From NCBI GenBank assembly GCA_000004695.1, contig CM000153.2:704001-768000 (forward strand): a DNA stretch of 64,000 nucleotides, written 5' to 3'. Position numbers and translations under genes: made by a program. Positions 42,464-63,474 of the stretch are shown here, piece after piece; within the stretch, counting starts at the first letter, position 1; each line of letters begins with the position of its first letter. The notes below the pieces were generated by a model. It was not told where the DNA came from and did not search any database. It worked only from the letters and a program-made list of their open reading frames with translations. This DNA is from Dictyostelium discoideum. Lineage: Eukaryota.

Positions 42464-44248
42464 ATGGATTTTTTAAATAAAAAAATTCAAAAAATATTAT
42501 TTATTTGTATTTTATCATTTTTAATTGTAAATTTAACTAAATCAGAAATTAGTGAAGTTAAAGATGTTAGTAAATTTTTATCAGTAGGTGGAGGAGGTAC
42601 AGGAGGATGTCAACATCCAATTTATTGTAATGGTACATTATTAAAAACAATACAATTGACACAAGTATTTAATGATTCAAAGACATTTGTCGATATGCCA
42701 ATGAGAACATCAATAGAGAATGTTAATGAATTGTTCAACCAACTTTTATTGAACACCAGTAAAAATGGTGGACCAAATAAAGAGGAGTTGGCAGCATTCC
42801 TCAGTGAAAATTTCTACCCAGCAGGGTACGAAGTTGAGCCGGTTACACCAGTAGATTGGGTGCCAAATCCAAGTTTTTTAGATGAAATCACTGATCCGAA
42901 TTTAGTGGATTTCGCAAGAAGCATCCATGGCAAATGGCTGGAATTAACCAGAGTATTCAACACCAGTGGATTGTGTGACGGTTGCTATAGTTCAATACCT
43001 GTGAATAATCCATTCGTAATTGCAGGTTCAAGATTCCGTGAGTTCTACTATTGGGATAGTTATTGGATCATTCAAGGTTTATTAGTATCTGATATGACTA
43101 CAACTGCCAAAGGCATGTTAAGAAATTTCGGTGATATGATAACTGAATTTGGGTTCATTCCAAATGGTGGTAGAATCTATTACTTAAATAGAAGTCAACC
43201 ACCACTTTTCACCCAAATGGTGAATAAATATTTTGAAGCAACCAATGGTAGTGATATTGAATTCCTTCAAGAGATATTACCAATTTTAGACCAAGAATAC
43301 CAATGGTGGATGACCCATCGTACAACAGAGTTGACCAATGGGGAAACTGGCGAAAGTGTGATTTTGAATCTTTATAATGTAAGCAACAATTCACCACGTC
43401 CAGAATCCTATTATGAGGATTTCACCGACGCTCAGTCATTTTCAAGTGTTGAAGAAAAGGATTATTTCTATAGTTCAATTGCCAGTGGTGCAGAGAGTGG
43501 TTGGGATTTCTCAAGTCGTTGGATGAGTCCATCTGACAATACCAATTTAACAACCATCCAAACCGTTGATGTAGTACCTGTGGATTTAAATTCCATACTT
43601 TATTTAAATGAAAAGATTCTTTCATCATTCCATAGAACACTTGGCAACAATTCAATGGCAGTCTATTACCAAGCTCAATCCGAGTCAAGAGTGGATGCAA
43701 TGCAACAAGTGTTTTTCAATGAGGATACTTACCAATGGAATGATTATAACTTGAAAACTAGCACAAACAATGAGGCTTGGTATACTTCAAATATTTTACC
43801 ATTGTTTGCCGACATTCAATCCTCAATCGATATGGATAACCAAGAGATTGATCTCATCTTTAAGAGTTTGGCAAATGTTTTAATAGCCTATCCAGGTGGT
43901 GTCCCTACTTCACTTATCTCTGCCCAAAGTTTACAATGGGATGGTTTAAACGTTTGGCCACCACTTCAATATTGGATCATTGAATCAATTATGACTCCAA
44001 ATACTACATTTTCAAATATGATTGGTAAAAATTTAATTGATCGTTGGATCACTACAAACTTTTGTGGTTGGAATTCAACTTTGGAATCTGAAGGTGGTAT
44101 GATGTTTGAAAAATATAATGCAAACTATATTGGTGTACCTGGTGGTGGTGGTGAATATGTTGTTCAAAATGGTTTTGGTTGGACAAATGGTGTTGATTTA
44201 TATTTATTAAAAAAATATGGTAAATCAATAACTTTAAATAGTTGTTAA
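42464..44248 (+). CDS. treh: Trehalase (GH37 alpha,alpha-trehalase), secreted/lysosomal.
   Basis: Signal peptide MDFLNKKIQKILFICILSFLIVNLTKSE. Trehalase signatures are IAGSRFREFYYWDSYW (PGGRFxExYxWDxY) and SLQWDGLNVWPPLQ (QWDxPxGWAPxQ). It is a full-length 594-aa ORF with no intron needed. Confidence 0.9.
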   Translation: MDFLNKKIQKILFICILSFLIVNLTKSEISEVKDVSKFLSVGGGGTGGCQHPIYCNGTLLKTIQLTQVFNDSKTFVDMPMRTSIENVNELFNQLLLNTSKNGGPNKEELAAFLSENFYPAGYEVEPVTPVDWVPNPSFLDEITDPNLVDFARSIHGKWLELTRVFNTSGLCDGCYSSIPVNNPFVIAGSRFREFYYWDSYWIIQGLLVSDMTTTAKGMLRNFGDMITEFGFIPNGGRIYYLNRSQPPLFTQMVNKYFEATNGSDIEFLQEILPILDQEYQWWMTHRTTELTNGETGESVILNLYNVSNNSPRPESYYEDFTDAQSFSSVEEKDYFYSSIASGAESGWDFSSRWMSPSDNTNLTTIQTVDVVPVDLNSILYLNEKILSSFHRTLGNNSMAVYYQAQSESRVDAMQQVFFNEDTYQWNDYNLKTSTNNEAWYTSNILPLFADIQSSIDMDNQEIDLIFKSLANVLIAYPGGVPTSLISAQSLQWDGLNVWPPLQYWIIESIMTPNTTFSNMIGKNLIDRWITTNFCGWNSTLESEGGMMFEKYNANYIGVPGGGGEYVVQNGFGWTNGVDLYLLKKYGKSITLNSC

Positions 44249-45415: not shown

Positions 45416-47376
45416 ATGGGATCAGTTGATACATCAGTCCCATCATTCGATAGAGCATGGAGTATAAAATATGAAGATTTAGATTTTATTTCTGAAATTG
45501 GTTCAGGTGGTTTTGGAAAAGTAAGTTAGTTTATGATTTATTTATTTTTTTTTTTTTATTATTAGTTTACTTATAATCGGGGATTTTTTTTTTTTTTTTT
45601 TTATAAAAAAAAGGTTTTCAAAGGTGAATATTTAGGTGCACCAGTTGCAATTAAGAAAATTCATATTTTACCTGATGATCCAAATCGTGTTGATTTAGAG
45701 AAATTTTTAAATCGTGAAATTGAAACTATTAAATTATTCACTCATCCAAATGTAATTCAATTTGTTGGTATCTCTGAAAATAATGGTATTCTTTTCATTG
45801 TTACTGAATTAATCGAAGGTAAATATATAAATATATAAAAATAAATAAAAAATATATATAATAAAACTAATAATTATTTTTATTTTATAAATTATTACAC
45901 AGGTGGTGATTTACAATATTATTTAAAGAATCAATCAATTGATTTACCATGGTTTTTAAGAGCAAACATCGCTCTTGATGTCTCTTTAGCAATGTCATAT
46001 CTTCATTCAAAATCAATTGTTCATAGAGATTTAAAATCTACAAATTTATTAGTTGATAAAAATTGGAAGATTAAAGTTTGTGATTTTGGGTAAGATACAT
46101 AATTATAATTATAATAGTTGTTATTTATTTTTCATATTATTAATTTTTTTTTTTTTTTTTTTTGTTTTTTTTATAGTTTTGCAAGAATCGTTGAAGAAGA
46201 TAATAATAAGTCAATGACAATTTGTGGTACTGATAATTGGATGTCACCAGAGATGATAACTGGATTAGATTATGATGAGAGATCAGATATCTTTTCATTT
46301 GGTATTGTTTTATTAGAGATTATAAGTAGAGTTAAACCAGCACCTTATATGAGAGATGCATCATTTGGATTAGCAGAAGATATCGTTAGAAATCAATTGA
46401 TACCAACTGATTGTCCAGAGAGTTTAATTGATTTAACATTTAATTGTTGTTCAGTTGATCCAAATAATAGACCTTCATTCAAAGAGATTTCCCAAACTTT
46501 AAAACAAATTAAAACTACTTTAGATTCAAATATAGTTTATCCAGAAATTCGTGATTTTGAACAACAACAAAAAATTTCAACAACAAATGGTAATAATAAA
46601 CAAAATGGAGGCGCTCCAAAAATTAATAATTTACCACTTCAATATAGTAATAATAATAATAATATTTATGATGATGATGATGATGACGATGATGACGATG
46701 ATGATAATGATTCATTCCCAAGACCATATTCAGATAATAGTAATAGTAATGTAACTTTAGAATCAAATTCAAATTATAATTCATCAACTATAAATGGACA
46801 AGAGCAACAAGAACAACAAGAACAACAACAACAACAACAAGTAAAAGAAGAAAGGGATGAAGGTGAAATTGAACAAGATGATGATAATATTGAGGTATAT
46901 GATAGTGATTATCAAAAGAAATTAGAAGAACATCAAAAAGAATTATTAGAAAGACAAAATCAAAATCAAGAAGGATCAACTGATGAGAATGAAGTTTATG
47001 AACAAGAAGAAGAAGAAGAAGAAGAGGATGAGGAAGAACAAGTTATTTCAACACCAGCTAAAAAGAGAATTTCATTTGGGCAAGATACTTTCCACACATA
47101 TGAAGCATATAGAACTGATGATGAAGATGATGATGATGATGAAGAGGATGAAGAAGAGGGTGATGAATATGACCATGGTTATGATGATTTCGATGAAGAT
47201 GATGAAGATGATGAAGAATATGATGAAGATGAAGATGATGAAGATGAAAGACAAATTCAATATTATCAACAACAATTACAATATCAACAACAATTACAAA
47301 AGCAACAAGAACAAGAATATCAAAGACAACAACAATTACAATTACAAAGAGAAGAAGAAGAATATCAAAGACAATT

Positions 47377-47427
<51 letters not shown>

Positions 47428-48964
47428 TCAACAACAATATGATGATGATGATGATGACGATGATGAAGAAGAAGAAGAGTATGATGATGTAATTAGACAT
47501 GATACTGATTCTGAAGAAGAATCAAAAGATAAAACTCCACTTCCATGGGATCAACACTTTGAAAAACAAAAAGAATCTGAAAATAAAGTTGAACAAGAGG
47601 AAACTAATGTAGTTGTTGCTAATAGTCAAGAAACTGAGCAACAACAACAACAACAACAACAACCAAAAGAAGAAGAAGAAGAAGAACCAACTAAAGTTGA
47701 AGATGTTAAAGTTGAAACTGAAGAACAAACCAAAGAAGAGCATGATGTTAAGGTTGATGAAGAATCAACTAAAGTTGATGAACCAGTTGATGAACCAACT
47801 AAAGTTGAAGAATCAGTTGAACAAGTTAAAGCTGAAGAACCAAATAAAGTTGAAGAATTGGTCGAAGAAGTTAAAGTTGAAGAAGAACCAACTAACGTTG
47901 AAGAAGTTAAAGCTGAAGAACCAGTAGAAGAAGTTAAAGTTGAAGAACCAGTTGAAGAAGTTAAAGCTGAAGAACCAGTTGAAGAAGTTAAAGCTGAAGA
48001 ACCAGTTGAAGAAGTTAAAACTGAAGAACCAGTTGAAGAAGTTAAAGTTGAAGAACCAGTTGAGGAAGTTAAAGTTGAAGAACCAGTTGAAGAAGTTGAA
48101 GCTGAAGAATCAGTCCAAGAACCAGTTGAAGAAGTTAAAGTTGATGAACCAACTAAAGTTGAAGAACCAACTAAAGTTGAAGAACCAATCGAAGAGGTTA
48201 AAGTTGAAGAACCAACTAAAGTTGAAGAATCAATTGAAGAAGTCAAAGTCGAAGAACCAACCAAAGTTGAAGAACCAGTTGAAGAAATTAAACCTGAAGA
48301 ACCAACCAAAGTTGAAGAATCAGTTGAAGATGTTAAAGTTGAAGATGTTAAAGTTGAAGAAGTTAAAGCTGAAGAACCAACTAAAGCTGAAGAATCAGTT
48401 GAAGATGTTAAAGTTGAAGAACCAATTAAGGTTGAAGAACCAGTTAAAGTTGAAGAACCAGTTAAAGTTGAAGAACCAGTTAAGGTTGAAGAACCAATTA
48501 AAGTTGAAGAACCAATTAAAGTTGAAGAACCAATTAAAGTTGAAGAACCAATTAAAGTTGAAGAACCAATTAAGGTTGAAGAACCAGTTAAGGTTGAAGT
48601 TGCCTCACCAGTTGTTCAAGAACAACCACCACAACAAGAAGAAAAACCAGAAGTCGTTTCAACTTCAACGATTACAATTGCATCATCACCACAACAATCA
48701 TCTAATTCACCACCATCAACTCCAGTTAAACAACCACAACAACAAGAAATCGAAGTAAATTCAACTCCAATTAAACAACAACAACAACAACAACAAACAC
48801 CAACACAACAAACACAAACACCAACTAAACAACACACTGAAATTAATGTCCAACCAACTCCAACTAAAACTCCACCATTACCACCTCAAACAAATGAAAA
48901 AATACCACTTATTTCACCAAATAATAAATCAAATAGAGGTTGTTGTTCCTGTTTCATCCAATAA
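45416..48964 (+). CDS. Protein kinase (TKL-like Ser/Thr kinase) with a ~700-aa acidic low-complexity tail carrying tandem EEPVEEVKV / EEPIKV repeats and a C-terminal CCSCFIQ lipidation motif. Four exons: 45416-45520, 45614-45818, 45903-46089, 46177-48964.
   Basis: Kinase subdomains read across the introns: GSGGFGK|VFKG...VAIKK...; ...TELIE|GGDLQYY...[12 protein letters not shown]...KVCDFG|FARIV...GTDNWMSPE...[12 protein letters not shown]. Donors are gtaagt, gtaaat and gtaaga; acceptors are aaag| and cacag| (ttatag| for the last). Phases are consistent. The repeat region 47900-48600 has perfect 27-nt and 18-nt tandem units. Confidence 0.8.
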
Positions 48965-49546: not shown

Positions 49547-51174
49547 ATGAATTTTAATTTAAATTTAGAATATCTAAATAGTGATCCAAATTCTATCATT
49601 GAATATTTAACACAAATATGGAAAGAGGATGAATCATTAGGATATTATAAAGAATTTCTTGACGTTTGTTTGAAAATTGTTGCAGGTACCGATCAGCCAG
49701 AAACATTTTTCAAAGAATTAACTGATAAAAAACTTTTAAATTTCGGAGCATGTGAAACTAAATGGAGTTTCGGTGACTCTGCTTATAAATGTAGAACTTG
49801 TCAACTTGACCCAACAAGTGCATTATGTATTGCATGTTTTAAAGAAGGTGATCATGAAGGTCATGATTGTAAGTTAAATTTATTTATTATTTATTTTTTT
49901 TTTCCCCATATAAAATATTTTATACTAATTTTTTTTAAATTTTTTTTTTTTTTTTTTAAAAAAAAAGATGCATTACAAAGTGTTGGAGGTGGATTTTGTG
50001 ATTGTGGTGATCCAGCAGCATTTAGACCAAATGGATTTTGTATTAAACATAAGGAACAAAAGATAGATATTAACAAGTATCCAGAAAGATTTATATTGGC
50101 ATTAAGTTTTGTAATACAGTTTATGTTGAAAAGGATATATGTGTTTTATGATAAGAATAATAGGGTATTGTTTGAAATGTTAATTGAATGGTTATTGAAA
50201 TTAGCACAACGTGGTGACATTATAAAGGTAGTGGTAATTAAATACATTAGTAACACAGACATTGGTAACACGAATTTATTACCACCATCACCATTTGCAG
50301 TACCATTGATTCAATTGTTCTATTCACCAGATTTACACGAATCAGTATCACGTTCAATGAAAGAGACAATCGCCAACTTTTGTGTGTTTTTACGTGGTTC
50401 AGTGGAATTTATCGAGTCGTTCATATCATTGATGTTACCAATTTACAAGAAATGTATCATCGAATGTAAGAAACATATCCTTTTATCATCATTTAGTATA
50501 TTTTCATCGACTGCAGTGGGTCCATTACTATTGTCAACCAACGCCGCTGAGATCGTGATGGATACTATCACAGAGTATTTTAGTAAACATTTTTATATTA
50601 GAGATGAATTCATTTCACCATCATCATCAGATTCAAAGTCAAAGAAAAAGAGATCATTACGTTTCAAAGATCCTTACCTTTATCCACAATTTAAACAATT
50701 GACAAAATTACATGAAACACCTTTAGCCACCCAAGTATTACGTACCGATATCTCTTTTATACTTGGTAATCAACCCGTTGCAAAGAGTGTCGTTGAGTCT
50801 AAACATCTTCTTTCCCTTTGGATCAATATGATTGCAATCGCTCAAGGTATGAATCCAAATGTTAAATATAAGATCACCTCCCCTGATGATTGGTCACCTG
50901 CTTTCAATGTTGATTTCTCCTTTAGTAATACCATTTTCTCCATAGTAAATTCAATATCACAAGATAAATTATCATTGGATCAAATTTTATTATTCTCAAC
51001 TCAATATCTTGGTAAATGGATTTTAGGTTGGTTAGAATATAGAAATAATTATCAAGTTGAAAAATTAAAAAGATTAGAAGAAAAAGAAAAAGAAGAAAAA
51101 GAAAAAGAAGAAAAAGAAAAAGAAATTGATTCAAAAGAATTAAAAACAACAACTACTACTACTACTAATACTAC

Positions 51175-51233
<59 letters not shown>

Positions 51234-53404
51234 CAATACCACATTATTTAACAAATATTAAACAATTATTATCATTACATTTAAAACGTGAAGGATTTTC
51301 ATTCCATTTACCATTACATAGATTAGTATCAGCTATTTTATTTAAATGTTTAAATAATGTTGAATTAGCAAAACAGTATAAAGATGATGGTGGTTTGAAA
51401 TCATTGTTTACTCAAATCATTGGTTCAGATTCATTGATTAGCATTTCAGATTATGCAAGAGGTACAACTTATCATCCATTCAAGATCATTGCCTCTTTAG
51501 GTGAAATTAAATCTGGTATGTGGAGATCACATGGTAGAGAAGAGGATATGACATTACAAACTGTCGTTTATCAAAGTTTACATTATCAAAAGTATTTCGA
51601 TTTAGATATTTTCTTAATTCAAATCGGTGCTGCAATTATGGGTTCAAATCAATTCATTCAACATGCTATCAATATCTATAATCTTGAAGATTGGTTTGAA
51701 ATTGAACCTTTTAATGGTTCATTAAATAAATCAACTGAGGGCACTCCTACTACCACCTCATCACAACCACCTTCAACTCCTTCAAAACAAACTTCATTAC
51801 GTAATAGTGCTGGTACTGTACCAACCACTCCTTCTCAATCTTCTTCAACTATAGTTCCAACTTTAGATACAATTGGTGAAACTACCACTACTACTACCAC
51901 CACAGCAACAACTACCACCACCACTGATGGTATAATTACAGAACCAAAAAAAGAAACTAAAGAAGAGAAAAAAATTAGAAAAGAAAAACAAAAGATTCAA
52001 GAAGATTTACAAAAGAGAAAAGGTTTAGCAGAGGATTTCTTACAAAATGTTATTATGTTTTCAACAAATAAATTAATGTGTGGTATGACAGAGGATCAAG
52101 TAATTAGAAAGGAGTTAATTCATAGATTATGTTTAGGTGATAATACTCATAGTCAATTGACAAGAGCAATCAAGAAGAAATTGGTTAATCATGAAAACTT
52201 TGAAACTATATTAAAGGAAATTTCAGTCTACCATCAACCACAAAAGACCGAACAAGGTAAATATCAATTACGTGAGCAATGTTGGTCAGAGTTTGATCCA
52301 TACTTTTCACATTACAACACTCAAGATTTACAAACTGCCGAAGAGAGATACTCTGAATTTCAATCCAAAACCAAGTCAAATATCGCTCGTGGTACCTATA
52401 TAAATTATCAAACTTCACCTTGTTTCGAAGAGATTGATCAATTACTTTGCTCAAAGACTTTACATCAAATCGTTTTCACTATCTTACAAAACCAATTGGT
52501 GGATGGTGCAAAATCAACTGATACCATATTCACCCATTGTTTACACGCTTTGGAGTTATGTATCAATCAAACTTTGGCCAATCCAGAGTTGAAGGCTGAA
52601 GCTATCAGCTCTGCAATCGTGGTTCAAACACCTTCAAAACAAACACCATTGGTTAAACCATCTTCTGCAACTCCACCAACTTCAATTCCAAAGAATTATT
52701 CAGAGATTGAATTACCATCTAAAAAGAATATCTTTTTGAATGCTTTTGTCGATGTTCCAGTTTCAGAGCAAAAGAGATTCTCTTTGATCATTTTATTGGT
52801 AAAACTTACAACCTCTCAACAAATCAATGCCGATCATAAACAACAAATTCAAAATATCATTAACATCTTGATGGAGAATAATGTCAATTGTAAACAAACC
52901 ATTGAAAATTATTGGGCTGCAATTAAAGCAAAGAAACAACCACAATCTGCACGTAAAGAGGATCCAGAGGAAGAAAAGAAACGTTTAGCTCGTGCTAGAC
53001 AAGCAGCGATTTTAGCTCAAATGAAAACTCAACAATCTGCTTTCAAATTTGAAGATGGTGAAGATGATGAAGATTACGAAGATGATTATGAAGATGCTAG
53101 CACAAAAGGTTCATCAGCTAGCGCAGCACATAAAGATAAAAAACAAAAACAAAAAGAATCAAATGCATTGGTTGTTGATGGTCATGAATCCATTACAACT
53201 TGTGCACTTTGTCGTGAACCAGGTTCATTGGATCGTCCAATGGGTAGAGTTGCTTTCATTCAACCATCTTCAATCATTATGTTATCAAAATTAACACCTG
53301 AAGAAAGAAAGAAACGTATGACTGAAGCAATAATGAAAGAACTTTATCAAGGTGTAAAAGGTAGAGAAACTATAATTTCAAATAATGATAATATAATTAA
53401 TTTA

Positions 53405-53441
<37 letters not shown>

Positions 53442-56191
53442 TTAACAACAATAATAATAATAATAATAATAATAACAATAATAATGTAAATAGTATTAAT
53501 AACAATATTGGAGGTATTCCAATTGTAAATAATGGTAATGATGGTGGTGTTAATGGTTTAACAGATTATATTCATCCAGATATGGATGAAATGGATGGTG
53601 ATGATATGGGTGATGTTGATATGGGTGGTATGGCAGTTGAGGATGATGGAGAGGATGATAGTGAGGATGAAGTAAATAAAGCTATCTCTTTCCTTAATCG
53701 TGTTTCACATTCAAATGATTTCATGGGTGGATTTGGTGATTTCGAAGATGGTATGGGTATGGATATTGAAGGTGGTGATGATGATGATGATGACGATGAT
53801 GACGCCGAAGATGATGATATGATGATGGGTGAATTGGGTGGAGTTCGTCACCATCACCACCATCATCATGGTGAGGAAGATGAAGATGGTGAAGAAGATG
53901 AAGATGGTGAAGAAGATGAAGGATCAGATTCAGATTCAGATTTGGATTTAGAAGATTTAAATGGTTCCGACGATTCAGATGATGAATTTGATTTTGGTGA
54001 TGAAGAAGGATCTGATGAATATATTTTAGAAGACGGTATGCCACGTTTACGTAGATTGGCCGGTACAAGTACTCAACAAGGAACTACTAGTACTAATAAC
54101 ACCACTGCAACATCAACCAATGATATAGCTCAAACTTTATTGAGAGCTCTAGAAAGAATACCAACAGGTACAGGAAATGTTAATAGTCGTAATATCATTA
54201 GCCAATTAACAACTCAATTATCACAAGGTAACGCAAGAGTACACATTCAAGCAAGAGATAACAATGGTAGAGCATTTTCAGAGATTAATTTTGATCAACT
54301 TCTTAGCCAATTAAATAATCAAACAAATGTTCCAATCTCTGTTCATGATAATGGTCGTAATAGAGCATCTGTAACTCTTCAATTAAATTCAACTCCTCCA
54401 ACTACAACTACCACCACAGCAACTTCACCAGCAACAACAACAACTACAACAACTACTACAGCAACAGCACCAAAACCAAATGATAATGGTGGTAGTGATG
54501 ATGAGGATTCAGATGATATGGGTGATATTGATGGGGATGATGAAGATGACTTATTTGGAGATGACGATGATTTCTTCTTTGATGATGATGAAGCAAACGA
54601 TGATGTTTTCCTTAAATTTGATGCAGCAACTGAACCAGTCACAGGTAAACCATGGTCAAATAAATTTAGTAAACAAGAAATCTTTAGAAACATTGAGGAA
54701 TCAGTAAACCTTAATTTATCATTCTGTGGTCATCAAATTCATGAAAGTTGTTTCTCTGAATACTCTTGGTCATTGTTAAAGAATAATGAAGGTGTTGAAT
54801 ATGTCGATCCAGAAAAGAATGAATTCCTTTGTGTATTATGCCGTAGAATTGGTAATGCGATCGTACCAGTTGTACCAGATTCAGGATTTTGTTCACACGA
54901 ACATACCGCATCACCACAACCAATCATCACACCAGCAATGGCAAGAAATAATAAGAATAAAGATGTTCAATGTTATTCCGAATTTTATCAAGCATTGGGT
55001 AATAGATTAATGGGTAAAGATGAAGAGCATAAAAAAGCATTGGATGCTCCAAACCCACAACCATTAAGAAATATTAGACAAGCAATCGATCAATTCTCAT
55101 CCAGAGTCTATGGTGTTAGATATGATTTGAATTTCTATAAATCAAAATCTGATGCAACCGTCATACCATTCCTTTGTTCATCTTTAGCTTCAACCATTGC
55201 AAGCACTGAACTTTCAATTCGTGTTCATGATCCAGAACAACAACAACAACAGCAACAACAACAACAACAATCAAGTCTTTATCCATTATTCTCAATGAGT
55301 GATTCAAATCGTGTTGACCTTCGTTCACTCTTTAGATATATGATTGTTCATTCACATATGTATCCATCATTGGCATATCAAGGTCAATTACTTTGGAAAT
55401 CAATATCTGGTTCACAACATACTCAATTATTACCAACTGAAGAGGAGTTGGAAGAAATTGAAAGAAAAGAAAATGAAGAAAAAGAAAAACTTTCAAAAGC
55501 AAAACTTGATCAAAAAGAAAAAGAGAAAGAAAGAGAGAAAGAAAAAGAAAAGAATGAGAGAGAAAGAACTCAAAAACTTTATCCAGAGGTTTATGATCAA
55601 GGTGTTTATGGTGAGGCATTCCCACCATTACTTTCATTAGATCTTTTCAATACTTTTATTCAAGTGTTTTTAAGATACTCTGATACTAATCTTTCATTGA
55701 ATGTTGAGAAATTCTATATGGTAGCAAGAATGTTTTATGATGCATCAATTACTCAATCGATTTTACAACATTTCAAAACCACCGATACTACTTTCACCAC
55801 CGATGATACCTATGTATCAACCATTAACAATTTAATCACAACAACCTATGAAACAGTAACACCAATCTTATCAATTCCACCAGTTCATTTGACTGCAATT
55901 AAAACTAATTCTCTAATCTTTTTAAGAAGATTATCAATCTTTTTGTTTAGTTGTTTAAAGATTGATCCAATCTCTTCAAATCAAACTACATTGGATGGTG
56001 AAATCGATTATTTAGTTGATTATTTAAATTTACCATCATTTGATCAACATTGTTTATCAGTTTTAAATGCTATCACTTCTCATACTGAAAATATTGTACC
56101 ATTGGTTTCAACTTGGACTGAACAAATATTATTTATTTCTGCTATTACTTCAAGTGTTGAAGATTCAAAAAATAATGTTGAAGATTTATCA

Positions 56192-56235
<44 letters not shown>

Positions 56236-56773
56236 AACTACTACAACAACTACTACTACAACTTCACCAAATGATAATCAAACTGTAGTTTCTTCACCAA
56301 TAAAACAATCAATTTTACCAAATCCATCAATTCCAAATCCATTCCTATTAATTCAATTACCAGAACAATACAATATTGTATCACAATATTATTCATCAAT
56401 TCCATGCCTTCAATGTAAAACCATTTCAAATAATCAAGCACTTTGTTTGGTTTGTGGTACATTATGTTGTTTGGGTGGTTGTTGTAAGAGATTCTTTGAT
56501 CAAAAGAGTGAAGCTGTTTTACATGCTGAAAAATGTAATGCTGGAACTGGTATTTTCTTACTTATCAAAACTAGTTCAACTTTATTAATTCATTTACCAA
56601 GAAAAACTTTATGGATTTCTCCTTATCTTGATGATCATGGTGAGGAAGATCCAAACTTAAGAAGAGGTAGACCATTACTTTTAAATGCTAATCGTTATAG
56701 TCAATTAAATTCATTACTCGTTAAACATCAAATCGATCAAGACTCAAAGATTGCAGAAATGTCTCAAAGATAA
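49547..56773 (+). CDS. UBR-box E3 ubiquitin ligase (N-recognin, UBR1/2/3 family), 2408-aa ORF. Two exons: 49547-49868 and 49971-56773, the intron lying inside the UBR box.
   Basis: UBR box CRTCQLDPTSALCIACFKEGDHEGHD | [28 protein letters not shown] (human UBR1: [21 protein letters not shown]). The intron is gtaagt...aaaaag, 102 nt, phase 1. A mid-protein RING-like CGHQIHESCF...CVLC is present, as is the C-terminal UBR autoinhibitory/Cys-rich region CLQCKT...CLVCGTLCCLGGCC...LHAEKCNAGTGIFL. The long ORF is continuous and also contains poly-Q/T/N and acidic/His-rich tracts. Confidence 0.8.
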
Positions 56774-56907: not shown

Positions 56908-58889
56908 TTAACTATTAAAAAATTTAATTATTTCATTATTAATAAAAGTTATTGATTTATTTCTTTTATTTTTTAATTGTAAATTTGAAAAAGTTGTTTT
57001 GTTGTGTAAATATCCTAATGAATGTGTTGGTTGACTTTTAATAAAATCTTTAATATATTTACAATTACCTGTACTAATTACATGATTGATATCATTAATT
57101 GGATTGAAAAGACTAATTAATTTTATTTCAGATTGAAATCCTACCAAAGTGTTATTTGTTATTAAACCATTTCTATATAGATTATAAATAAATTTACGTT
57201 GTTTAAAATTCCTATAAATATCCAAACCAATTGAAATTTCAATTTTTGGTTTTGATTCTTCTAAAGAATTATTATATTCAATTAATTTTTGAATGGAATA
57301 ATAAAATAAATAACCAGATTCCCATTCATTTAATTCAGAGATATTATTTAATGAACCACTAAATCTATAACCAAGTTTTTCATACATAAACTTTGCAACT
57401 TGAATAGTTTCACTATGATTAATTGATGTTTGTTTATTAATTCCTCCAATATTATTATCGTGAATATATTCTATAAAATTTAAATTATTTGATTTTATAA
57501 TTAATTTACTAATTGATTCATGATCCCATATAAAAAGATCTCTATTATTTTCATAAAAATATTTAAAAATATTTTCATTACCAACTAATAAATTACCATT
57601 TAAATATTCTGGTTTTGTTGAAATATTTGAAAAATAATAAGATTTTATTATTAATGCAATTTTTTTGAAATTTTCATTATCGTCACCACTATCACTATCA
57701 CCACCGTCTCCATCACCATTTGTCTTTAGTTTATCTTGTGTATTATTGTTTATTATATGTTTAAAAATTGTTTCTTTAATATTTGTATTATACTTAAATA
57801 AAACATCTAAAAAATTTAATTGCTTTGATATTGGAGTGGTTTTTGGGTTGAAAAATAGATCTTGTGGTAATTTTATTAAATGAGATATAGCTAATCCTCT
57901 ACTATGATCAAAATGATAACCCTCTTTAAATAAATCCTTTATTCTATCAATTATTTGGGAATCTGCATATTTCATTGATACATCAATAATCATTGAACTA
58001 GTTACATCATTATTTATCCATTGACTGTTTATTTCTTCAAATAAATAATTATAATCACCATATTGACAAATAAAATTTAAAATTAATTTTACCCAATCTT
58101 CATTTGTTAATAATACCATATCTTTAACTTTTTTTAAAAATTCAAATAAAAATATTCTTTTTATTTCTCTTTCAAATATAAAATTATTATTATTATTTAA
58201 ATTATTATTAATAAGATTATTTATTTTATTTAAAGTTTCAGAATAGTAAAGTGAATCTGATTTTTGGATTTGTGATAAAAGGTATAATCCATTTTGTAAA
58301 TGATTTAAAAAGGTATTAAATGTTATTAATTGATTATTATGGTGATTATAGGTTATAAACTGAGAACAATTGACAGTTATTGAACTAAATTTATTTGTTA
58401 CTGAATTTTGTTTAAATCTATCTAATAAAGATTCAACCCAACCCATATTATATAACCTTTTAAATAGATTAAACTCTAAAAGTATTAATTTATAATTATT
58501 ATTATCATTAAGTTTTTTTGATTTTGGTGATAATTTTAATTCATCTAATAAATAACTTAATACTTCATTTCTATTTGGTAATTCTAATACATTTGAAATT
58601 AATAGTAACTCTTGTTGTAAATTTTTTTTATTTAAATAATTTTTTTTATTTTTAACAATTTCATTATTAATATATTTTATAATATCCAAATTACCGCATT
58701 TGAATGCTAAATCTAATAATATTGAACTATCTTCAACTATTTCTTGATTAATAATAATATCTTTATGAATTATTTTAACAAATTCTAAATTATTTGTACT
58801 TATAGAGAATGAAAATAATTTATTTTCACCATTCTTTAAAAAAAGTGCTTTTATTTGTTTTTTATTCTTTTGATAAAATTTATTTAAAA

Positions 58890-58962
<73 letters not shown>

Positions 58963-59256
58963 TTTATTTATTAAATGTTGAATAAAAAGTTTTAATTCAT
59001 TTTCTTCAATTTCATTCTCTTCAAATTCTATACCAATTTTAACTTTATCATATAATAGTTCAAAAAAATTATTTTTTATCATCCAACAAAATGTTGCTTC
59101 ATCAAATCTTAATCTTTGTGTATAACTCTTATTTTTAATATTACTATTGGTAATTTGTCGATTTATACCTCTAACGATTTTAAATATTTTTTTTAATAAA
59201 AATATATTATTAAAAACTGATTTATATAATGTATAGATTTTATCACTGCATTCCAT
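56908..59256 (-). CDS. Hypothetical protein (782 aa), F-box-like N-terminus plus ankyrin-like repeats. Paralog of the adjacent gene.
   Basis: MECSDKIYTLYKSVFNNIFLLKKIFKIVRGINRQITNS... is shared with the neighbour (RFDIYKLYKLVFNDIYLCKKIYKFVRGINRQFTNS). Repeats resemble LDLAFKCGNLDIIKYINN (ank-like). The C-terminal INHSETIQVAKFMYEKLGYRF matches the neighbour's INHCKTRQVAELMYEKLGYKF. Contains a poly-N. Confidence 0.55.
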
Positions 59257-59324
59257 ATTTAATCAATAACTTGTTGTGGTAATATTATTGAAAAAAAAAA
59301 AAAAAAATTAAAAAAAAATTTAAA

Positions 59325-59356
<32 letters not shown>

Positions 59357-59554
59357 TGAAACCTTCAAATGGGTGTTTATTATTAGATTCACTTTATTAA
59401 TTTTATAAATCTTAATTTTTTAAACAAATGAATATTAAATAGTATTATTAAAAACATGTAATTAATTAAAAATCAAAAATTTAAAAAAATCAAAAAAAAA
59501 AAAAATTAATTAAAAATACATTATTTTATTATTTTTTTTTTTTAAAAAATATGT

Positions 59555-61178
59555 TTATAATCTTGAGGTTTTAATATTAAAATAATTAATTATAAAGTTA
59601 TTATTTACAGGGAAAGATTTACAAAAATTATCATCAAATATTATTTTTGAATTATTTTCTTTAATGTATTGATTTATATATGATAAATTACCAAATTTTT
59701 TTAAAGATTCTAATGAGTTTAAAGAGTTTAAAAATTCATTTACTTGATTATCACCAATTGAAATGTTATTAAAATTTAATTTCCCATCAATGATTAATTT
59801 TGATAAAAATTTCAATTTTTTATAATCATTTCCTACTTTATTACTTGTGATAATTAATAAATTACTTGAAGAATCTGATTGATTATCTTTAATGATTTTA
59901 TTAATTGCATAATAAAATAAATAATTTGAATTCCAATCATTTAGATTTGAAATATCAATAAGTTGACTATCGAATTTATAACCCAATTTTTCATACATTA
60001 ATTCAGCAACTTGTCTAGTTTTACAATGATTAATTGAAGAATTTAAATCCAATGAACCAATTTCATTATTATGAATAAATTCAATTAATTCTAAATTACT
60101 TGATTTAATTATTGATTCACTAATATTCTTATCATTCCAATCAAATAATTCATAATGATTTTTAAAATAATATTTAAAAATCATTTCATTTCCAGTAAAT
60201 AAATTTGCAGTTAGTTTCGTAGTAGTACTACTACTGGTGGTGGTAGTGCTAGTGGTAGAATTGTAATTTTTAATAATTTCAATAATTTTATTTGCATGGT
60301 CGACAATTGTTAAATCAATAAAATTATCAAATATATTCTTTAAAATGATTTCTTTACATTGGAAATTATATTTGTAAATGGTTTCAATAAATATTAATTG
60401 TTGATTGATATTAACTAATTTTGGATTATAATAATAATTGTTTGTTGATGTGTCATTGTGATGTCTAACATATGATTCATCTAAATAACGTTGAAAATAT
60501 TGTTCATAAAATGTTGGTATAACTTCAATGAAATTTGGGTCACCATGTTGTACAGCTATTTGGATAACCAATGATGAAAACATTTTCTCTGGTGATTTTA
60601 ATTTTACATTTATATCTTCAATCTTTTTAATATTTAATTCATCTTGAATTAAATTATATTCTTGACTTTCTCTTGAATAATTTAATATAATAAGTGTCCA
60701 TTCATCTTGTGAAAATATTAATTCTTTAATTTCTTTTAAAAAATCAATTAAAATAATTCTTTTTAATTGAATTTCAATTTTATTTCCACTAAAATTAATT
60801 TCATCATCATCATCACTATTAATTTCAACAATTGATTTAACTTTATTTGAAATTACTGATTTAATATTTGAAAATAAATTTGTTATTTTAAATTCTGCCT
60901 GTTGTTCATATTTCTCATTTTGCTGGTCTTCTTCTTGTTGTTGGTCTTGTTGTTGTAATAATTTATTTATATTTTTTAAAGGCTGACAATATTTAGATTT
61001 AATAGTTGATAAAAATAAAATTGTATTTTGGAAAAAATTTAAAACATTATTAAATGGAATAAAATCTTTTCCATTATTATAATTTATTAAATATTTTGAA
61101 TAAAGTCTAATTCTTGTGCAAAGTTTACTAATTATTAAATCATGTGAACTTTTATTAATAATAAAATTATTATTATTA

Positions 61179-61213
<35 letters not shown>

Positions 61214-62074
61214 GGTTGGTATTGAAATTAAACCAATTTCAAATAACTTTTTAAATAATGATGATTCTAAATTAAAAAAATCAGTGAATAATGATTTTGG
61301 ATCGTATGGATAATTATCATCTCTTTCCGATTTTATTGGTTTGAAATTAATTTCATTTAATAAATATTTAATTATTTTGTTTTTATTATTAATAGTAGTG
61401 GTTGATGCAATTATATTATTTATTGTTTTCTCTCTGTCAACAAATTCAATACCTAATGTATTATGAACAAATTTAATTATTTCTAAATTTCCATTCTTTA
61501 TTGCACTATCCATTAGAAAGTTAAATGGGTTATTCGTTTTTTCAAGTTTAAATTCTTTATTTATAAACTCTTGTTGATATATTATTTCAATAAAATCCAA
61601 ATTTTGTGAATCTACTGCAAATTTTAAAATTCCATCTATCGAAGCCAATTCTTTAATTAATTTTTTATTTGTTTCATAAAATGTATTTAAAATTTCTTTT
61701 GTAATAATTAATGATGGTGTTGATGTTGGTGTTGGTGTTGGTGTTGGTGATGTTGATGATGTTGATGATGTTGATGTTAATGTTAAAAATAATGAAATGT
61801 TTGGTAACGTGAAATCATCATTTTCTTCTTTAAATTGTTTACCAATTTTGATTTTATCTTTTAATAATTGAAAATGAGCATTTTTAACCATCCAAATAAA
61901 TGTTGCTTCATTGTATCTACATCTTTGTGTGAATGATTTATTTTCTATCATACTATTTGTAAATTGTCTGTTTATACCTCTAACAAATTTATAAATCTTT
62001 TTACATAAATAAATATCATTAAATACTAATTTATATAATTTATAAATGTCAAATCTATGAGAACTAACAACCAT
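59555..62074 (-). CDS. Hypothetical protein (839 aa), tandem paralog of 56908-59256. F-box-like N-terminus plus ankyrin-like repeats.
   Basis: Collinear similarity to the downstream paralog along the whole length (about 30-35% identity by eye): F-box-like N-terminus, FAVDSQNLDFIEIIYQQ / MDSAIKNGNLEIIKFVHN, and the shared C-terminal block GNEMIFKYYFKNHYELFDWNDKNISESIIKSSNLELIEFIHNNEIG. Confidence 0.55.
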
Positions 62075-62652: not shown

Positions 62653-63474
62653 ATGTCAAATGTTTTATTTTTTATTTCTTTATATTTATTATCGAATAGT
62701 TTTGTAAATTCTCAAGGATCTCCATCTAGTTGTACTTTTAATGGTATAAATTATGGTTCATTAAGTAATGGTAGTTATTCAGCATTAAGTGCAGCCTCAA
62801 GTGTAAATCCTCAAGGTAAATATAGATACTATTGGAATATATGCGGTGATGCAACTCAATGTAAATCATATGGGAGTTGGTCAGCATGTCAACTTCAAGT
62901 TGGTTCAACAGGTAATCCAAATCCTGTAGGTTTAACAAGTCTTGGTTCATTTGGTACATCAAACTCAGGTGATACACAATTAAAATACACCACATCCTTA
63001 AAATGCGCAAATGGAAATAATAGAACTTTTATTATGACATTTACCTGTTCTAATAATCAAGTAATTTCATCCTCATTAGTTTCAGAGAATAATTGTATTT
63101 ATACTGTAGAAATGAGTGGAAACATTTTTTGTCCCACTCCAACTCCAACTCCAACTCCAACTCCAACTCCTACTCCTAATCCAACTTCAAATGTAACCTG
63201 TAAATCATCCAATGGAATTTCAATAACTAGTTCAGATATCATTACATGTATTGGATATGGTCAATCAATATGTACAACATCATCAGGCTATTCATGTGAA
63301 ACCAATCAAACTAATGGAGTTCTTAAATGTATTTCACCTGATAATTCAATTTCATGTATTGGTAATCAATTCTATTGTTATACTCAATCTTATACATGCT
63401 CAGTTGATTTTAAATCTTATGATGGATTACAAGTGAATGGTAAAATCATTAATTCAACTTATTTTTCATCATAA
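62653..63474 (+). CDS. Secreted Cys-rich protein: signal peptide, MRH-like (mannose-6-phosphate-receptor-homology-type) Cys/Trp/Tyr pattern, (TP)n linker, and a second Cys-rich C-terminal module.
   Basis: MSNVLFFISLYLLSNSFVNSQ is a signal peptide. YRYYWNICGDATQC...WSACQ...CANGNNRTFIMTFTC...CIYTVEMSGNIFC recalls MRH/Yos9-type domains. TPTPTPTPTPTPTPNP is a linker. The C-terminal part has 8 Cys. Confidence 0.5.
   Translation: MSNVLFFISLYLLSNSFVNSQGSPSSCTFNGINYGSLSNGSYSALSAASSVNPQGKYRYYWNICGDATQCKSYGSWSACQLQVGSTGNPNPVGLTSLGSFGTSNSGDTQLKYTTSLKCANGNNRTFIMTFTCSNNQVISSSLVSENNCIYTVEMSGNIFCPTPTPTPTPTPTPTPNPTSNVTCKSSNGISITSSDIITCIGYGQSICTTSSGYSCETNQTNGVLKCISPDNSISCIGNQFYCYTQSYTCSVDFKSYDGLQVNGKIINSTYFSS

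Follow-up and report, generated by a model that had tools for sequence, protein, structure and literature searches.

The stretch of Dictyostelium discoideum DNA analysed here, referred to below as the window, comprises 64,000 nucleotides of contig CM000153.2 (assembly GCA_000004695.1, positions 704,001 to 768,000, forward strand) and is very AT-rich, with a GC content of 0.14-0.33. Two genes lie head to tail on the minus strand of the window, and we use the labels A and B for them throughout. Gene A, the downstream one of the two (56908..59256(-)), is an intact single-exon open reading frame (ORF) of 782 amino acids (aa); gene B, the upstream member (59555..62074(-)), is an intact single-exon ORF of 839 aa. 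A preliminary description, made from the sequence alone, had given the pair these positions and lengths, and both ORFs are found exactly there; neither gene needs an intron to be read. The 298 bp spacer that separates them (59257..59554(-)), which was read directly, is AT-rich and presumably holds the 3' end of B together with the promoter of A.

The product of gene B is 100% identical to DDB_G0283477 (XP_639100.1, UniProt Q54QZ1; P0001), which one source calls 'Ankyrin repeat-containing protein'. B is already public as a hypothetical or ankyrin (ANK)-containing protein, and the family to which it belongs is unnamed. The exact 782-aa product of A is missing from a collection of 15 billion protein sequences in which the B product is present, and neither exact product is recorded in the gene index. 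It is therefore possible that the AX4 gene model in the public databases departs from the ORF given here, or that A has none. The ORF does appear among the genes called in D. firmibasis and in another D. discoideum strain, where it encodes 758 aa and differs mainly in the length of a poly-Asn run. Gene A shares 94-97% identity with this 758-aa gene (strain assembly GCA_054859385.1) and 61-67% with its ortholog in D. firmibasis (P0005).

The products of A and B align in a single collinear, full-length BLASTP match with compositional adjustment (31% identity, 51% positives, E = 4e-96), in agreement with the roughly 30-35% identity first estimated for them. Since compositional adjustment was applied, this value lies far above chance despite the low-complexity tracts that both proteins contain. 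No third copy was found in the window by tblastn.

The two proteins share one layout: an N-terminal module of ~75 aa (N-module), a low-complexity linker, three to four ANK repeats, a middle domain of ~300-350 aa, a distal ANK-like block and a variable tail. The N-module occupies aa 7-80 of A (59017..59238(-)) and aa 10-83 of B (61826..62047(-)); in A it follows the pattern YxLYKxVFxNxYLxxxIFxxV, with a variable loop and then ATFxWMxKNxxFELLxDKIK after it. It is the most conserved region, with 66% identity between A and B and a mean of 42% across the paralogs; the C-terminal block (C-block) comes second, at 52% and 33%, respectively. The conserved stretches noticed at both ends in the preliminary description were recovered letter for letter, as LYKSVFNNIFLLKKIFKIVRGINRQITNS and LYKLVFNDIYLCKKIYKFVRGINRQFTNS in the N-terminal part and as INHSETIQVAKFMYEKLGYRF and INHCKTRQVAELMYEKLGYKF towards the C-terminus. 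The linker lies at the same place in both proteins and is a run of ~25 Asn residues in A (58891-58968(-)) and a Ser/Thr/Pro-rich tract in B (61700-61790(-)). Tract lengths vary by strain (782 versus 758 aa for A; 839 versus 825, 818 and 858 aa for B), so that most of the length polymorphism falls within homopolymer tracts.

A third conserved block, overlooked at first, lies in the middle domain, where the helices are longer. Its consensus is E(R/I)(E/Q)(I/L)KRIxLxxFLK, and it takes the form EREIKRIFLFEFLKKVK in A (aa 362-378; 58123..58173(-)) and, from the family alignment, EIQLKRIILIDFLKEIK in B (aa 434-450; 60725..60775(-)). The same alignment gives E361, K365, R366, I367, L369, L373 and K374 as invariant columns, and the middle domain carries an invariant E-x-x-x-KRI-x-L motif; we refer to this region as the EREIKRI middle.

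The suggestion that the internal repeats are ankyrin-like is borne out for the proximal block. In A this block (aa ~121-246; 58519..58896(-)) consists of ~3-4 degenerate repeats, including FSISTNNLEFVKII and LDLAFKCGNLDIIKY; in B (aa 125-262; 61289..61702(-)) it includes FAVDSQNLDFIEII and MDSAIKNGNLEIIKF. When the B block was compared with canonical four-repeat ANK segments using hhalign, the match extended over 104 columns with Prob 96.6% and P 6.2e-10. The N-module, MID1 and MID2 gave Prob <=0.5% and P >=0.13 against the same segments. A local hmmsearch with the family profile pointed to the same region, with 145 significant domain hits to 40 remote ANK proteins, all but one of which fell at profile positions 120-245.

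The distal block lies at aa ~546-660 of A (57277..57621(-)), where it contains GNENIFKYFYENNRDLFIW, IIKSNNLNFIEYIHDNNIG, INHSETIQVAKFMYEKLGYRF and WESGYLFYYSIQKLI, and at aa ~615-730 of B (59885..60232(-)). The C-terminal block of B (aa 615-839) matches canonical ANK segments with Prob 21% and P 1e-3 over 136 columns and the family's own proximal ANK block with Prob 88% and P 3e-6 over 105 columns. On these comparisons each protein contains a proximal block of ~3-4 degenerate ANK repeats and a second, more eroded distal ANK-like block, which together make up roughly a third (~30-40%) of its length.

The degeneracy of the repeats is evident at the level of individual motifs. The helix-2 signature A-x-x-x-G-(N/H)-L-(D/E)-(I/V)-(I/V)-K-(Y/F)-(L/I) occurs three times per protein, and the GNL-IIK motif that had first drawn attention to the repeats is found at aa 154, 187 and 589 of A and at aa 156, 194 and 658 of B. 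The spacing of the signature is 33 aa in A (154 to 187) and 38 aa in B (156 to 194). The TPLH motif is replaced by (L/M)-(L/D)-(D/S)-(L/A) in the repeats of A and B, as read from the sequence. Pfam Ank models gave no match to either protein even at E<=10, which places both below the gathering threshold. In the paralogs P0010, P0012 and P0014 sub-threshold Ank_2 and Ank_3 matches occur at the same position, scoring 18-20 bits against cut-offs of 22-27. A single-repeat ANK hidden Markov model (HMM) found only one or two repeats per protein, being too narrow a model, and hhalign was used instead; even so, real sequences beat shuffled ones by 16 to 0.4.

Neither A nor B has a meaningful match in Pfam, NCBIfam or the PDB sequences. 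Pfam matches to Glyco_hydro_59M (E 0.042), HEPN_RnaseLS (E 0.64) and nsp3 PLpro (E 0.87) were attributed to chance. No relative of known function was detected for the N-module, the middle domain or the variable tail. Among PDB sequences the sole match to the N-module profile covers 15 residues of the repeated LYAIYKQVFGNTYV motif of phycobilisome linkers, with per-domain E >=28, and is a coincidence. The resemblance involves the N-motif YxLYKxVFxNxYL (59190-59229(-) in A and 61999-62038(-) in B) and the LYAIYKQVFGNTYV motif of the cyanobacterial proteins CpcN and CpcJ (PDB 8imn and 8iml), and we judge it to be due to chance.

The family had been described as uncharacterized. That label stands because a strong Pfam match to any characterized family is absent; neither Pfam nor NCBIfam has a model for the family, and a literature search with nine gene IDs and two other identifiers found no paper. 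The family is at the same time a divergent branch of a very well known repeat class.

AlphaFold2 (AF2) models of both proteins are all-α, with short helix pairs in the proximal and distal blocks. These pairs recur with a period of ~30 aa and a predicted local distance difference test score (pLDDT) of 75-88. Overall the A model has a pLDDT of 68 and a predicted template-modelling score (pTM) of 0.46; the B model has a pLDDT of 69 and a pTM of 0.57, and its C-block reaches a pLDDT of 85-93. Comparison of the full-length models with solved structures did not confirm an ANK solenoid fold. In BFVD, a database of predicted viral structures, long ANK proteins from amoeba-infecting giant viruses make up almost all of the top ~35 Foldseek neighbours, with probabilities near 1.0, marginal E values (best 3e-4) and low template-modelling (TM) scores of 0.15-0.3. 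Hydropathy analysis found no transmembrane segment or signal-like N-terminus in A or B, the maximum over 19 residues being ~1.0. A and B are soluble, all-α proteins without catalytic or membrane features.

The distribution of the family was examined by an exhaustive HMMER search of 1.84 billion cluster representatives with a profile built from seven sequences. The 57 matches at E<=1e-3 fall into two classes. The first comprises ~16 full-length, collinear matches, and for ten of these the source was looked up: nine come from D. discoideum AX4, other strains of the D. discoideum complex (D. cf. discoideum) or D. citrinum, and the tenth is a distant protein of Acytostelium subglobosum (P0028). 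The second class consists of multi-stretch matches restricted to profile positions ~120-245, and these are ordinary multi-repeat ANK proteins (Pfam Ank_2 E 1e-13 to 1e-161). In AX4 the family loci are DDB_G0285707, DDB_G0285701, DDB_G0267740, DDB_G0273245/DDB_G0273653 and DDB_G0290999, which, listed together with A and B, bring the total in D. discoideum to at least eight.

The collinear order of N-module, ANK block, EREIKRI middle and C-block is found at the AX4 loci, in D. citrinum, in D. firmibasis and probably in D. purpureum. The last assignment concerns P0052, a further family member encoded in assembly GCA_000190715.1, which we take to be that of D. purpureum. From the sequences recovered, the full-length architecture appears to be confined to group-4 Dictyostelium. 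P0052 itself lacks the C-block, and directly upstream of it lies a 303-aa partial paralog with a match to the middle domain only (the two genes at L004 48-959 and 1204-3141; GL871456.1). Since the partial copy adjoins a C-block-less one, tandem arrangement and domain loss recur in the family.

Word-indexed searches with the full proteins were dominated by poly-Asn and poly-Ser/Thr words, to the extent that the tandem partner was not even recovered; they gave D. discoideum-complex orthologs (86-94% identity), the D. firmibasis ortholog of A (61%) and the paralog DDB_G0285707. The same type of search with the N-module alignment gave 914 word-sharing candidates, none of which reached a score.

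The Acytostelium protein (SAMD00019534_041160; XP_012756075.1) is the only relative found outside group 4 (E 2.6e-8). It has the same N-module (LYRGVFRSIYLRNKVFQHV ... AQWMIHNGYIELLIDKI), with ANK repeats directly after it, but differs from A and B in that these repeats are canonical (Pfam Ank_4 1e-27) and in that the family's middle domain and the C-block signature motifs are lacking. An N-module followed by canonical ANK repeats suggests that the family arose from an ancestor with an N-module and ANK repeats.

We next consider the age of the tandem duplication. In a neighbour-joining tree calculated from 643 well-occupied columns, the D. firmibasis protein groups with A in 100% of bootstrap replicates and B is sister to that clade in 99%. 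A and B are genuine tandem paralogs, each being the closest relative of the other. The order B-A followed by a convergent gene for a UBR1-type ubiquitin ligase is kept in another D. discoideum strain, where the pair encodes 858 and 758 aa, and in D. firmibasis, where it encodes 863 and 775 aa. The 863-aa upstream gene of D. firmibasis lies at the syntenic position and is 59% identical to B. Because the tandem pair is conserved in both species, the duplication predates the split between D. discoideum and D. firmibasis.

Both copies are under purifying selection. Between D. discoideum strains the ratio of nonsynonymous to synonymous substitution (dN/dS) is 0.37 for A, 0.23 for B and 0.08 for the UBR1-type neighbour; between D. 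discoideum and D. firmibasis, at a synonymous divergence (dS) of ~0.6, the corresponding values are 0.37, 0.37 and 0.11. A region scan for positive selection found no sub-region with dN/dS >= 1, the range being 0.18-0.56. Neither ORF is interrupted in the window or in the genomes of D. firmibasis and a second D. discoideum strain. An old duplication retained under selection, as the preliminary description had read the divergence, agrees with the synteny, the dN/dS values and the intact ORFs in three genomes. A and B nevertheless gain ~3 times the amino-acid (nonsynonymous) change of the UBR1-type neighbour, and their identity to the D. firmibasis proteins is 59-61% versus 82% for the neighbour.

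The preliminary description had also called the family F-box-like, and this part of it did not survive. The idea has some appeal, since a short conserved N-terminal module followed by divergent repeats is a layout that suits a substrate receptor: Skp1 would dock on a cryptic F-box in the N-module, and substrates would be brought to an SCF ligase by the ANK solenoid. Among the weaker BFVD neighbours, moreover, a few carry an F-box plus ANK annotation. Nevertheless, no Pfam match to F-box, F-box-like, F-box_5 or FNIP (PF00646, PF12937, PF18511 and PF05725) was obtained for 19 family members at E<=1. An F-box alignment and HMM were prepared from seven F-box sequences, each of which was validated with Pfam. 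Against this profile the N-module gave an hhalign Prob of 0.1% with one aligned column, compared with 97.3% for an F-box versus F-box control, and the HMM scored at most 3.3 bits against family members. No F-box protein was picked up when all PDB sequences were searched with the N-module profile, the module lacks the LPxE signature and, according to the models, it is predicted to begin with a pair of long helices (of 14 and 19 residues) where an F-box has three short ones. The family gene IDs are also absent from the text and one supplement file of the Skp1 interactome paper (PMC9485057). Dictyostelium F-boxes are very divergent, under-predicted and can be cryptic (West-lab study, PMC9485057), and for this reason we leave a small residual probability to what is an unlikely reading. 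We regard it as comparably unlikely that the repeats are not ankyrin at all but a generic helical repeat of the HEAT, ARM, TPR or PPR-like kind, whose GNLxIIK motif would resemble ANK helix 2 by mere chance in an AT-rich proteome with much Asn, Ile and Lys. The profile-profile match covers ~3 repeats rather than a single motif, the significant domain hits to some 40 unrelated ANK proteins pile up on the same block, the single-repeat HMM separates real from shuffled sequences, P0028 has canonical ANK repeats after the same N-module and the BFVD neighbours are almost only ANK proteins.

Decay of one copy would account for the absence of the exact A product from the protein collection and gene index, when the B product is in the collection, and for a dN/dS of 0.37 that is higher than that of the neighbour. 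We consider a non-functional duplicate very unlikely: the lengths of both ORFs are conserved in all three genomes, dN/dS is well below 1 for A, for B and for each sub-region, and gene calls for A exist in both of the other genomes. The least probable alternative, which we give hardly any weight, is an origin of the family in, or its exchange with, giant viruses of amoebae, whose genomes are rich in long degenerate ANK proteins. The top structural neighbours do come from Pandoravirus, Orpheovirus, Mimivirus and Tupanvirus; against this, the structural E values are marginal and the TM scores low, the N-module, scanned against 2.9 million viral contigs, gave no relative and no viral protein occurs among the full-length matches of the exhaustive search. 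The loci are also syntenic across species, with a GC content (0.15-0.22) typical of the surrounding genome.

Our preferred explanation is that A and B are tandem sister paralogs of a small, group-4, ANK-derived family and serve as soluble scaffolds or adaptors, and we hold this to be likely. Such doubt as there is attaches mostly to function and not to identity. A tandem duplication before the split of D. discoideum and D. firmibasis gave rise to A and B. By likeness to other ANK solenoids, both would serve as scaffolds or adaptors for protein-protein interaction, with no catalysis of their own, in which the conserved N-module and C-block would probably bind a partner that all members share. 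The repeat surfaces and the middle domain, which evolve faster, may differ between paralogs in a manner that provides paralog-specific partners. Divergent surfaces of this kind offer a plausible reason for the retention of both duplicates, namely subfunctionalized binding specificity.

Among known proteins, A and B come closest to the ANK superfamily (PF00023, PF12796, PF13606 and PF13637), which they resemble in the profile match of the proximal block, in the helix-2 signature and in a spacing of ~30-38 residues. A non-catalytic α-solenoid is predicted for them too, and the distal block is related to the proximal one. They differ in that no Pfam ANK threshold is passed, TPLH is lost and the N-module and long-helix middle have no ANK counterpart. 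The best neighbours at the level of fold are the long degenerate ANK proteins of giant viruses (Pandoravirus salinus S4VWT6 and Mimivirus L764 and R840), of 500-750 aa, which are similarly degenerate, multigene and rapidly evolving in an amoebal setting. Unlike A and B they lack the N-module and the EREIKRI motif, no relation to them was detected at the sequence level, and the TM scores reach only 0.15-0.3. A and B look like the long degenerate ANK proteins found in amoebae and in the giant viruses that infect them, and would work like them.

The layout of a short conserved terminal module combined with divergent ANK repeats in expanded paralogs is also common to F-box-ANK proteins, to the ASB family (ANK-SOCS box) and to poxvirus ANK-PRANC proteins, in each case as an analogy only. 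Models for the SOCS box and PRANC gave no match in the Pfam scans, and the N-module has no detectable F-box similarity. The N-module, for which the pattern YxLYKxVFxNxYL...W-I-x-K-N-x-x-Y-E-L-L-x-D-K-I-K can also be written, might be a dictyostelid-specific adaptor box, analogous and not homologous to the F-box, SOCS box or PRANC, that docks divergent ANK solenoids onto a shared machine such as a cullin-type ligase. We think this improbable; if true, it would make the family a set of lineage-specific, tandemly expanding substrate receptors, with A and B as neofunctionalized duplicates.

These results define a previously unnamed, lineage-restricted Dictyostelium family and set out its domain layout. 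The database label 'ankyrin repeat-containing' gains a firmer basis, and an F-box/FNIP expectation that could mislead annotation is removed. The N-module and the EREIKRI middle are orphan domains. The pair provides a clean case of an old tandem duplication whose synteny has persisted across species, and both copies, though constrained, evolve fast. Lineage-expanded, divergent ANK families are common in amoebae and their viruses; the biology is fairly ordinary in this respect, and current understanding is not challenged.

Some observations on the neighbouring genes complete the description of the locus. The ORF convergent with A (49547-56773(+)) encodes 2408 aa of a UBR1-type N-recognin E3 ligase, with Pfam matches to zf-UBR, UBR1-like_wing and PRT6_C. 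It includes, unspliced, a canonical GTAAGT...AG intron (99 nt, 49869-49967) that is in frame and free of stop codons. This intron splits the UBR box, and the zf-UBR match ends at profile position 43 of 69 for that reason. On the other side of the pair, a 273-aa Cys-rich ORF (62653-63474(+)) is hydrophobic at its N-terminus, contains a (PT)n tract and gives a weak match to a PRKCSH_1/MRH-like domain (E 1.8e-7). It diverges fast between D. discoideum strains, with 88.9% amino-acid identity and a dN/dS of 0.40. Further from the pair, an ORF at 46118-48964(+) covers no more of a protein kinase domain than its C-lobe and is presumably a single exon of a kinase gene that has several, and a complete trehalase gene is present at 42464-44248(+) (Pfam Trehalase, E 4.5e-143).

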